A DNA stretch of 64,000 nt from a virus. Taxonomy: Duplodnaviria; Heunggongvirae; Uroviricota; Caudoviricetes. The notes under the pieces were generated by a model. That model saw only the letters and a list, made by a program, of their open reading frames with translations. It was not told the DNA's origin and made no database searches. Where the stretch lies: positions 61,232-125,231 of the IMG/VR virus record IMGVR_UViG_3300044878_000136. One strand, 5' to 3'. Of the stretch, positions 7,616 through 64,000 are shown piece after piece. Each line of letters starts with the position of its first letter. Position 1 is the first letter of the stretch. The position numbers and the translations under genes are program-made.

Positions 7616-7668
7616 ACAAAAAAAAGAAAGCTAGAGACAGGAGCGCAAGCTCCTGTCTCTATGCTGTT
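7616..7668. terminator. Bidirectional terminator (U-tract on minus, TATGC on plus)
   Basis: 13-bp stem tagagacaggagc-gcaa-gctcctgtctcta between convergent genes; A-tract on the left. Confidence 0.85.
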
Positions 7669-13753: not shown

Positions 13754-13780
13754 GCGTTGTAATATTTTACGTTAACAAAA
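13754..13780 (-). promoter_or_regulatory. Putative middle-type promoter (AAATATTAC on minus)
   Basis: Matches the AAanntTAC motif reported for phiKZ; near-duplicate at 62864-62893. Confidence 0.5.
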
Positions 13781-61124: not shown

Positions 61125-61171
61125 GGCATAAATGACACTGCGGGTTTCCCCGCAGTGTCATCGCTTATGCC
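61125..61171. terminator. Bidirectional terminator with TATGC on both strands
   Basis: 13-bp stem atgacactgcggg/cccgcagtgtcat flanked by ggcataa...ttatgcc. Confidence 0.8.
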
Positions 61172-61608
61172 ACAGTGATGGTGATAAAGACACCACCGCC
61201 CTGGTACAGCATGCTGGTGGGTTTTGGTGACACACCGATACTGCCTGGGGTACCCGCATCAATAGGTGGAGTCCATTCACTGAACACCAACTGATCGAGT
61301 CGAAGACCCATAGCAGCAGCGACTTTGACCTCAACAGCAGCCTGGTCATCGGTAACGAGTACTTCCACACTGGTCACGTCCGGTCCAACGCCGTCGTTGA
61401 TCCCCATGCGGTCGTAAAAGATCACATCGTCACCGCTAAAGCCATGACCTTCAATAGCCGTCAAGGTTATCTGGGTGTTCCTTACACCGCCGGATACAGC
61501 CAAACCGCTGGCAGTAACTTGGTCAGCGCTCAGAGTGAGCCCAGGGTTGTCCTCAATAACCTGGAGAACGATATTCTCCAGGGGCGTTTTGGTGATGTCG
61601 ATATGCAT
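61165..61608 (-). CDS. Stalk-family single-domain protein (paralogue of 61653)
   Basis: MHIDITKTPLENIVLQVIEDN; IFYDRMGI. Confidence 0.7.
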   Translation of the reverse strand: MHIDITKTPLENIVLQVIEDNPGLTLSADQVTASGLAVSGGVRNTQITLTAIEGHGFSGDDVIFYDRMGINDGVGPDVTSVEVLVTDDQAAVEVKVAAAMGLRLDQLVFSEWTPPIDAGTPGSIGVSPKPTSMLYQGGGVFITITVA

Positions 61609-61652
61609 ACCACTTACCCTTAGGGAAGCCGCCATCCTTGGCAGCCTAGCGG

Positions 61653-62159
61653 TTAAGCTTCAGGATCGAAGCCGCTCAGCTCGTCGATCACGATTTCGTC
61701 ACCGAGATCAGGAGCAACTGGCAGGGTCAGTTCCAGCACTTTGGCTGCGCCGACGTACAGCAGGCTACCAGCCACCGGAGTGATGGTGATGGTACCTGGA
61801 ACGCCTGCGGCAGCGGCAGTGTAAGCCGAGAAGGTCAGTTCGGAAGTAACCAGACCCAGGGCGGTAACGACCTTGGCCTGAACGGCAGCTTGGTTGTCAG
61901 CTTCCAGAACTTCCAGAGTGGTAACTGGAGTGACTTTGCCACTGTCCAGGCCCAGACGGACGTACTTGACCAGCTTGGAACCGGTGAAGCCCTGACCTTC
62001 AACGGCGGTCAGGGTCACTTGGGTGTTCTGAGGGCTGCCGCCGTATACGGACGGTGCACCAGCAGTAACCTGGGAAGCGGTCAGAGCCAGACCGCTGTTG
62101 TCTTCGATGATCTGGAGAACCAAGTTCTCCAGAGGCGTTTTTGCTACGTTAATCTTCAT
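61653..62159 (-). CDS. Stalk-family protein + LSGFDPEA tail
   Basis: MKINVAKTPLENLVLQIIEDN; VKYVRLGL. Confidence 0.75.
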   Translation of the reverse strand: MKINVAKTPLENLVLQIIEDNSGLALTASQVTAGAPSVYGGSPQNTQVTLTAVEGQGFTGSKLVKYVRLGLDSGKVTPVTTLEVLEADNQAAVQAKVVTALGLVTSELTFSAYTAAAAGVPGTITITPVAGSLLYVGAAKVLELTLPVAPDLGDEIVIDELSGFDPEA

Positions 62160-62223
62160 GGCGCATCTCCAGGATGTAATACAGAGTTTGGACCAAACTC
62201 CATACTATCATTCCAGACGATGA

Positions 62224-62664
62224 TTAGAACACCAGCTTGAAGCTGTAGTCGCCATGGTAGATCAACGAATCAGGTTTGGCAGACACAATCAACAGGCCGG
62301 GACGAACACCGACTACCGGCATCTGTGCGGCCACGAAACGCCATTCAGCAGCTTGTAGCGGGAACACAGCCATCGCAGCGTCGAAGATCTGTTGGTCAGT
62401 CATGCCTGCGGTGACAGTGACTTGGATAGACTCGCTACTACCCAACTGGTTCACTGCGGAGCTGCGGTTGTAGTACAGGTAGTCAGAGCCACTGAATACC
62501 GGAGTCGCACCTGGGGTGAGTTGTACGCGGGCATTGGTCGGTTGTTCGATCAACTCTTCCACCGTGCCGAAGGTCACGTTAACCGCTGTCAGGTTAGTCC
62601 CGTTCAGGGAGTTCAGCAGGTCGAGGATGTTCTGTTGAGCGGTCTTTGCGTTATTAAGATTCAT
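62224..62664 (-). CDS. Stalk-family single-domain protein
   Basis: DLLNSLNG, LYYNRSS, AKPDSLIYHG; SD aggaga. Confidence 0.7.
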   Translation of the reverse strand: MNLNNAKTAQQNILDLLNSLNGTNLTAVNVTFGTVEELIEQPTNARVQLTPGATPVFSGSDYLYYNRSSAVNQLGSSESIQVTVTAGMTDQQIFDAAMAVFPLQAAEWRFVAAQMPVVGVRPGLLIVSAKPDSLIYHGDYSFKLVF

Positions 62665-62704
62665 AGTTCTCTCCTAAATGGAATCATACTATTTAAACGG
62701 TTGC

Positions 62705-62852
62705 AGCATAAAGAAGAGAAAAATGATCACCAACGGCGGGAGTGGGGATGGGCGCCGTTGGTGATCGAGTGCAGTGCTAAGAGGCGATCAGGACCTTGAA
62801 GGGGAGGAGTCCTGACCGCCAATGAGCCAAGGTTGATGGGAGACCTTGATTC
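62705..62852 (-). ncRNA. Candidate ~145-nt three-hairpin sRNA with C-rich loops
   Basis: Stems 62827-49, 62783-820 and 62725-66; promoter-like motif about 24 nt upstream; U-tract plus TATGC end. Confidence 0.6.
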
Positions 62853-62863
62853 AAATGATAGCG

Positions 62864-62893
62864 GCGTTCTGTAAAATTTTACGCTAACAGAAA
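62864..62893 (-). promoter_or_regulatory. Putative middle-type promoter (AAATTTTAC, palindromic core)
   Basis: gcgttctgtaaaattttacgctaacagaaa vs gcgttgtaatattttacgttaacaaaa at 13754. Confidence 0.5.
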
Positions 62894-62898
62894 AGTTG

Positions 62899-63343
62899 CA
62901 GCATAAACACGCCGAGTTTGACCAACCCGTTTACCAGGCCAGTCAGTGACTCGACGTGTCTAATGATCCAAGGCCTACTCAGAAGTCATTGAATGCCTCG
63001 CCGGAGTACCGGGTCTGGGTCGCTGAAGTCAAAAGTATTTATGGCAGAGGATTAATCGCGTAACCCGCCGGTGCCAACTATAACGGTGCCTGGCAAGAGG
63101 CCCACAGGGAGTCGGAGTTCAAGTTGTGTGGACGCGTACGTCCTGATTGTACATATAATGTCAATCCCCAGAAGCTATCCGTGTCCTCACGCTAGATAGG
63201 TTCTGAGGCTTAGCACTATTGGCTACAGCTACACCAGCCACCCGCATGGGCTGATGTCAGTGCTAGGGAGGACATCCCAGCGTTGGTACCCCGGTCGACG
63301 GAGCGAGTGCCGACCATTGGGGTAGAAACTGCACTGTTGTTAC
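62899..63343 (-). ncRNA. Candidate ~445-nt structured non-coding RNA
   Basis: No ORF of 60 aa or more; at least 7 hairpins; G-U wobbles favour the minus strand; TATG at 63346-43; terminal hairpin + TATGC. Confidence 0.55.
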
Positions 63344-63400
63344 ATACTATACTACCAGCTGCAAACGATATGAATGAAGTACCTTATTTGGGAGGTCTTA

Positions 63401-64000
63401 ATGGCCAATATCGACATCCGGCTTTTACAGCTTATTAACAAGAAGGCGTTGAATCGTATCGATGAACAATACATCGAAATCTCTCCGCCGGAAGATATCC
63501 CGCCACGTACCGAAGTGAATGGACTGGTATCCAATACTCGGGTCACCATCACTGCACGACCTGAGGGGAAGTACAAGAACTCCAAGACGGTACGGTATCG
63601 TCGTAACAGCATCCAGGATGAGTTCGATGGTTACGACATCGAGTCTCCTGCGGCATCCAGACCAGTGTGGAATCACATCATCTTCAGTGAGATGATTGGG
63701 TTGGTGACTGATGTACTGCAACTGTTCTGCATCGATCCAAACGATGTCGACATGGAATCATTTGGCCACATGTTCCCGGCGGACAGTCGGGGTAGACGTG
63801 AACTGAATCCTTCCTACTTGGTTGATGGTTCACTCACCGTTACATTGCGACCTACTCAAAACAACTACTATTACAACGGTCCAGCGACTCTCACGTTCGG
63901 CGCTCACACAACTGTCGATCGTAGGCTACGACTGGAAGAAGACTTGGCTGTGCGTTATGAAGAAGATGGGGGCACACGTCTCCAAGATGGAGTGTTCAAG
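63401..64000 (+). CDS. Stalk-family virion protein, 3'-partial (not in ORF track)
   Basis: SD GGAGGT; MANIDIRLLQLINKK...NTRVTITARPEGKYKNSKTVRYRR; open to the window end. Confidence 0.7.
   Translation, partial: MANIDIRLLQLINKKALNRIDEQYIEISPPEDIPPRTEVNGLVSNTRVTITARPEGKYKNSKTVRYRRNSIQDEFDGYDIESPAASRPVWNHIIFSEMIGLVTDVLQLFCIDPNDVDMESFGHMFPADSRGRRELNPSYLVDGSLTVTLRPTQNNYYYNGPATLTFGAHTTVDRRLRLEEDLAVRYEEDGGTRLQDGVFK

Follow-up and report, generated by a model that had tools for sequence, protein, structure and literature searches.

The sX13 RNA of Xanthomonas forms three stem-loops, and their C-rich loops are directed at G-rich motifs close to start codons. Comparable designs are known from other bacteria: the cuckoo RNAs (Rfam ar14, RF02344; NfeR1/SmelC397 and CcsR1-4) of the Alphaproteobacteria (Rhizobiales and Rhodobacterales) consist of two to four hairpins side by side, each 24-50 nt long with a loop of 9-27 nt that carries CCUCCUCCC, and the staphylococcal RNAIII and RsaE carry UCCC in several hairpin loops, which pair with G-rich ribosome-binding sites (PMC4615179). 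Among jumbo phages, ONT-cappable-seq has revealed intergenic ncRNAs as well as short 5' UTR-derived RNAs that arise by premature termination, 17 of the latter in phiKZ and 8 in 201phi2-1; these RNAs run from a phage promoter to an early terminator, often lie upstream of structural genes, are conserved within the genus and have no known function (PMC10914365, PMC11512511).

Here we describe a three-hairpin element which, as judged from sequence comparison, is a real, clade-restricted non-coding RNA gene of a phiKZ-like jumbo phage and, by analogy, a functional analogue of the UCCC/C-rich-loop sRNAs that stands outside the known families. A preliminary description of this DNA had suggested that such an RNA was new to jumbo phages, and indeed our literature search found no paper on a C-rich-loop sRNA in a jumbo phage; the multivalent C-rich-loop design has not been reported for the phiKZ and 201phi2-1 RNAs either.

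The phage is known from an IMG/VR virus record (G000; 263,994 bp, 54% G+C), and the stretch analyzed here (“the window,” 64,000 nt) comprises bases 61232-125231 of that record. Its major head protein is of the phiKZ type (phrog_3231), with Pseudomonas phage pPa_SNUABM_DT01 as the closest isolate at only 36% identity, and the cultured phages closest to it infect Pseudomonas and Xanthomonas. Since it also encodes homologues of two virion RNA polymerase subunits of phiKZ, gp178 (34% identity across 1454 aa) and gp180 (39%), we regard it as a divergent member of the phiKZ-like jumbo phages, one expected to rely on polymerases of its own for transcription. The element (Table 1) sits in the largest intergenic region of the 264-kb genome (62665-63373, 709 nt), between two divergent paralogous virion structural genes (phrog_1037/2935). 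Four nearby genes, at 61165-62664 on the minus strand and 63401-64000 on the plus strand, are paralogues from one virion structural family (phrog_1037/2935/3589) and stand divergently around this RNA-coding gap. We compared four sequence variants of the element: that of the window, those of the IMG/VR phages L002 and L003 (found via the neighboring plus-strand gene) and a metagenome type, L021 = L022, found via the three-loop pattern in metagenomes.

Table 1. Features of the three-hairpin locus, in window coordinates.
Feature	Position	Strand	Details
First copy of UUUAUGCUGCAAC	62895..62907	minus	closes the last hairpin of the large structured RNA that lies upstream
Promoter motif GTAAAATTTTACA	62870..62882	minus	GTAAATTTTACA-type; phiKZ “middle”-type AAanTTAC element
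Start-site box TATCATTTGAA	62850..62860	minus	predicted +1 = G62852; invariant in 4 variants
Hairpin 1 (H1)	62849-62827	minus	7-bp stem including one U.G; loop CUCCCAUCA; conserved core UCCCAUC
Hairpin 2 (H2)	62820-62783	minus	12 bp (13 as folded); loop UCCUCCCCUUCAAG; conserved core UCCCCUUCA
Hairpin 3 (H3)	62766-62725	minus	14 perfect bp; loop CCCAUCCCCACUCC; conserved core CCCCACUCC
U-rich tail AUUUUUCUCUUC	62713..62724	minus	predicted 3' end region; read from sequence
Second copy of UUUAUGCUGCAAC	62700..62712	minus	exact 13-mer, behind the tail AUUUUUCUCUUC
Late-promoter-like TATG box ATAGTATG	62685..62692	minus	TA[GC]TATG; for the downstream structural gene
Downstream gene, encoding a paralogous virion structural protein of 146 aa	62224..62664	minus	phrog_1037, E = 5.5e-10

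The preliminary description had drawn three minus-strand hairpins with stems of 7, 12 and 14 bp and C-rich loops, followed by a U-rich tail, and this layout was confirmed from the sequence. The hairpins measure 23, 38 and 42 nt, their loops (9, 14 and 14 nt) are all G-poor and C-rich, and the predicted 139-nt RNA has an MFE of -58 kcal/mol vs. -30.2 +/- 3.5 in shuffles (z = -8.05; 0/200 shuffles). A strict hairpin scan of the whole genome (stem of at least 7 bp, at most one G.U pair, G-free C-rich loop of 8-16 nt) returned only four hairpins in 264 kb, H1 and H3 among them, with H2 missed by the G.U limit alone; a cluster of three such hairpins side by side is not a matter of chance.

Both the wobble pairs and the hairpin stability favor the minus strand. 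Stem mismatches on the plus strand become G.U pairs on the minus strand, as had been pointed out: eight minus-strand G.U cells would be A.C on the plus strand, with one case of the opposite kind, and 10 of the 12 hairpins (three in each of four variants) are more stable on the minus strand, which is also the only one with a U-rich tail behind the last hairpin. These observations bear directly on the alternative that the product is a plus-strand RNA with GGA loops, serving as a CsrA/RsmA sponge. GGA does occur in every plus-strand loop (GGAGUGGGGAUGGG, CUUGAAGGGGAGGA and UGAUGGGAG) and the palindromic core of the promoter motif matches on the plus strand as well, with one mismatch, but such a transcript would turn the eight wobble cells into A.C mismatches, fold more weakly in 10 of 12 hairpins and end in a hairpin with no U-tract behind it, and the TATCATTTGAA start box is found on the minus strand only; we consider a sponge most improbable.

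The promoter-like AAATTTTAC (62879-62871) noted earlier lies inside GTAAAATTTTACA, 21 nt ahead of H1, and proved to be part of a real phage motif: GTAAAAnnTTACA, allowing at most one mismatch, has 28 copies in the genome vs. 1-4 in shuffles (~2 expected), and 16 of the 28 are intergenic in a genome of which intergenic DNA makes up 6.5%. The motif is kept in all relatives and resembles the phiKZ middle promoter, AAanTTACc centered at -24 (PMC4666361). Its core is palindromic, so the motif alone does not fix direction. A G is found at position 31 or 32, counted from the motif start, in 11 of the 13 gene-oriented copies (gene within 250 nt), mostly as T-G-A-A-C, and boxes similar to TATCATTTGAA, namely TATCAGTTGAAC and TATCTGTTGAAC, lie behind other copies; in one copy the G in question belongs to TAGTATG, the late start motif of phiKZ, whose late promoter is TATG with its G as +1 (PMC4666361). 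By this rule the start is predicted at G62852, inside TATCATTTGAA, so that the RNA would open directly with H1. At the other end, H3 probably acts as a terminator hairpin as well, and the composition of AUUUUUCUCUUC is similar to that of the CUUUCUUUUU tails of other terminators in the phage. The predicted transcript, from G62852 to ~62716-62722, is thus ~137 nt long, close to the ~145 nt first expected, and would form a self-contained minus-strand unit.

The promoter core at 62871-62882 is a perfect 12-nt palindrome, GTAAAATTTTAC; two central changes in L002 give GTAAATATTTAC, once more a perfect palindrome, and its retention could reflect a dimeric DNA-binding factor or bidirectional use. 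Copies of the GTAAAAnnTTACA motif inside the window include those at 13770 and 62882 (minus), the more distant relative G003 has fewer (8 copies), and the boxes behind the motif are of two kinds, TACATTAT... and N9-TATC(A/T)GTTGAAC. A 31-aa ORF within the element (62822-62727) was rejected as coding: it has no SD, and both its frame and its length are lost in L002.

The sRNA region is 83% identical to the related phage G001, which equals the genome median; over the whole genome, the L002 phage is 81% identical. All three stems are retained in the four variants, with 96.4% of cells paired and five pairs altered on both sides, a covariation score reached by 0/500 shuffles; slid-partner controls were only 16-57% paired. 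In the H1 stem one pair is altered on both sides (A-U to C-G) alongside several G.U pairs, while the sequence of the H2 stem is largely rebuilt in the relatives with a 9-11-bp stem still there (columns 48/73 are G-C, A-U and U-A in three variants), and H3 has two pairs altered on both sides and 100% of its cells paired. Covariation among relatives, proposed earlier as a check, is thus seen in the stems (five two-sided changes), but with only four close variants its power is low and it is supportive rather than conclusive.

Though the stems vary, UCCC recurs in every loop, 12 of 12 (three loops in four variants), and what is conserved in the loops is UCCC throughout plus ACUCC in loop 3. The preliminary description had named loop conservation as a point on which its reading could fail, and here the outcome is divided: UCCC holds, but the specific elements it had singled out, CUCC (anti-GGAG) and CAU (anti-AUG), are mostly variable, loop 3 having its CAU, and loops 1 and 2 their CUCC, in this phage only among the four variants. 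Loop 3 had been read as the complement of GGAG-N5-AUG, which is exact in this phage (GGAG-UGGGG-AUG-GG) but private to it, the relatives having UCCCUCCCCACUCCU or UCCUCCCCCACUCCU. Loop 1 had been read as both anti-AUG and anti-GGAG; both do appear in its complement, UGAUGGGAG, but there the AUG precedes the GGAG, the wrong order for a start region, and the CUCC is again not shared.

The loops also speak to a simpler account, in which the hairpins are plain terminators or insulators, or palindromes acting at the DNA level, that separate a highly expressed RNA gene from a late gene and whose loops have no function. H3 with its U-tract is terminator-like and the phage uses many hairpin terminators, but the ordinary ones have loops of 4-7 nt and a conserved GCAUAGAG/CUCUAUGC stem base, whereas the loops here are 9-15 nt long and keep their sequence while the stems change; further, these hairpins come after a promoter motif of their own. 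We therefore hold this account to be very unlikely.

How closely, then, does the element match the described systems? The sole Rfam match was ar14, which aligns full-length to the window element (36.8 bits, E = 1.3e-4) at less than its gathering score of 58.8; in L002, L003 and L021, ar14 gave no match at E <= 10. As in ar14, there are adjacent hairpins with C-rich, anti-SD-like loops, a terminal terminator and compensatory stem changes, with hairpin and loop sizes within the family range; unlike ar14, the element is phage-borne, has a phage promoter and is missing CCUCCUCCC. This 9-mer is in no loop of the four variants, although loop 2 of the window has CUCCUCCC, 8/9 of it, which the relatives have lost. 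Since the 9-mer is missing and the relatives give no ar14 match, we suggest that the element would work like the cuckoo family without being a member of it.

The likeness to RNAIII and RsaE lies in the UCCC of the hairpin loops (12/12), and the differences in the lack of sequence or structural homology (Rfam), the Gram-negative-type phage, and the other size and context. With sX13 the element shares a length of ~115-140 nt, a fold of three stem-loops and C-rich motifs in the loops, but there is no Rfam match to it at E <= 10 and sX13 is a chromosomal gene of the host. A promoter motif and a hairpin/U-tract end lie upstream of a structural gene, a layout that may parallel that of the phiKZ and 201phi2-1 ncRNAs (own start site, a terminator within 250 nt, then a gene); the element has no homologue in phiKZ by its covariance model (R1), and the phiKZ gp221 leader, when folded, lacks C-rich loops. 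The phiKZ “gp182 sRNA” was set aside as a counterpart: the gap there is only 55 nt and not comparable.

By model R1 the element is single-copy in its own genome, and it is present only in a close clade (MCP at least 95% identical). The model found nothing in pPa_SNUABM_DT01, LucasX or phiKZ, nor in five relatives at 66-67% MCP identity, one of them a complete 254-kb genome; blastn of the whole gap against those five gave just a common terminator word, and a blastn search of 50,697 phage records with the region gave no match. An exact-pattern scan of IMG/VR returned L002 and L003 again and nothing else, and the corresponding scan of metagenomes returned 16 stretches, of which L021 and L022 are real (and identical in the element) and the other 14 are chance C-rich matches. 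Two matches from an exact-pattern scan of GTDB species genomes were discarded, L082 as chance (z = 0.73 when folded) and L083 as a poor fit (141-nt span vs. the 102-nt element), as were C-rich-loop clusters in G003, which lie inside genes and are attributed to chance. The 146-aa downstream protein, used as a query, led to no relatives; its sole cultured homologue is in LucasX, with an upstream gap of just 86 nt.

The element lies directly upstream of a late structural gene, on the same strand, and might therefore be a cis-acting 5' leader or attenuator of that virion gene: most transcripts would stop at H3, read-through would set timing or level, and the short RNA would be a by-product. This would fit the 5' UTR-derived short RNAs that phiKZ (17) and 201phi2-1 (8) make by premature termination, and TATG-type boxes do flank the element on both sides. 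The downstream gene, however, owns a ATAGTATG box past the terminator (TA[GC]TATG has 13 copies in the genome, 8 of them intergenic), and L002 keeps the element up to the 13-mer in front of another downstream gene; moreover, attenuation does not need conserved loops on covarying stems, and no notable pairing is seen between the loops and the SD of the downstream gene. A leader is unlikely in our estimation, albeit one of the main rival explanations.

The 13-mer, UUUAUGCUGCAAC, occurs exactly twice, and the second copy may be either a late promoter of the TATG type or a motif associated with terminators. TATG is part of it, and at three or four sites the motif stands upstream of genes with no hairpin; on the other side, TATGCTG is found behind ~30 terminator hairpins genome-wide, mostly at convergent gene ends, where it supplies the 3' side of the conserved stem base GCAUAGAG...CUCUAUGC, followed by UG. 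In a more distant relative TATGCTG stands ahead of a terminator hairpin. Between L002 (2669-3296) and the window (62224-62700), homology stops exactly at the second 13-mer, which for this reason may be the boundary of a recombination event or of a module; downstream of the L002 sRNA are a different gene and ~35 extra bases with a further TTTATG box.

The first copy of the 13-mer ends another RNA. Directly upstream of the sRNA, an ORF-free stretch of ~450 nt (62895-63350, minus) is 92% identical among the four variants, which is the 90th percentile of the genome and above the flanking genes, and shows 145 consensus pairs, 13 of them altered on both sides, and ~45 G.U cells, on the minus strand only. 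It runs from a ATAGTATG box (63350-63343) to a long hairpin plus UUUAUGCUGCAAC. Rfam returned nothing for it, the relatives at 66% MCP identity lack it, and in the four variants it is inherited together with the sRNA as a block.

This neighbor raises the alternative of a protein-binding or RNP module, in which the C-rich loops would bind a phage or host RNA-binding protein, possibly together with the ~450-nt RNA or, by read-through, as its 3' domain. Such a module would account for a very conserved structured RNA immediately upstream on the same strand, for the 13-mer with which both RNAs finish and for their joint absence from the next relatives, and three similar loops do suggest multivalent binding. 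Yet the sRNA has its own promoter motif, the large RNA closes with a long hairpin of the phage's terminator type, no conserved pairing was found between the sRNA loops and the large RNA, and no candidate protein binding C-rich loops was identified. We rate an RNP module as quite unlikely.

The reading that we prefer, tentatively and at a little under an even chance, is that of a trans-acting sRNA with multivalent UCCC loops directed at G-rich ribosome-binding sites. Transcription would start near G62852 from the middle-type promoter GTAAAATTTTACA and the TATCATTTG start box, and would stop at H3 and the U-rich tail to give the short RNA; its three G-poor UCCC loops would then pair antisense with GGGA- or GGAGUGGG-type G-rich stretches in the ribosome-binding regions of host or phage messages and so block translation initiation, as do the bacterial UCCC/C-rich-loop sRNAs. 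The preliminary description had likewise proposed an RNA that blocks ribosome-binding sites, there for host shut-off or phage timing. In the phage's own genes no preference for start sites was seen: loop duplexes with 296 phage start regions were no stronger than those with coding interiors (means of -8.2 vs. -8.5, -9.9 vs. -9.3, and -10.5 vs. -10.3 kcal/mol), and exact loop complements across the genome occurred at chance frequency, with no enrichment. Two phage genes outside the window (G000 181684 and 238683, minus; 306 and 519 aa) do carry AAGGAGUGGG as their SD, which is complementary over 9 nt to the conserved portion of loop 3 and is kept in the related phage G001; at a rough, uncorrected P of ~0.04, these are a lead only.

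Taken further, the 709-nt gap might hold a two-part, clade-specific RNA system of nucleus-forming-type jumbo phages, with the ~450-nt RNA and a UCCC-loop sRNA of a different promoter class reprogramming translation during infection, e.g., by masking G-rich ribosome-binding sites on host messages or early phage messages. We offer this as speculation with a rather low probability; if true, it would amount to RNA-only translational control encoded by a phage, so far undescribed for virulent jumbo phages. These phages make many short ncRNAs, and we know of none with an assigned mechanism. The design of the present element is readable (three UCCC loops, covarying stems, its own promoter and a terminator), which makes multivalent masking of G-rich ribosome-binding sites a directly testable hypothesis. 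PhiKZ-like phages keep transcription apart from translation, and confirmation would mean that they also steer cytoplasmic translation by base-pairing RNAs.

Together, the promoter and terminator motifs amount to a first map of transcription in this clade of uncultured phages. Members of the ~30-hairpin terminator family in the window include those at 7660, 25007, 30728, 35290 and 37138; an A-tract flanks them on one side, a CUUUCUUUUU tail on the opposite side, and the stop codon of the opposing gene often abuts the motif.
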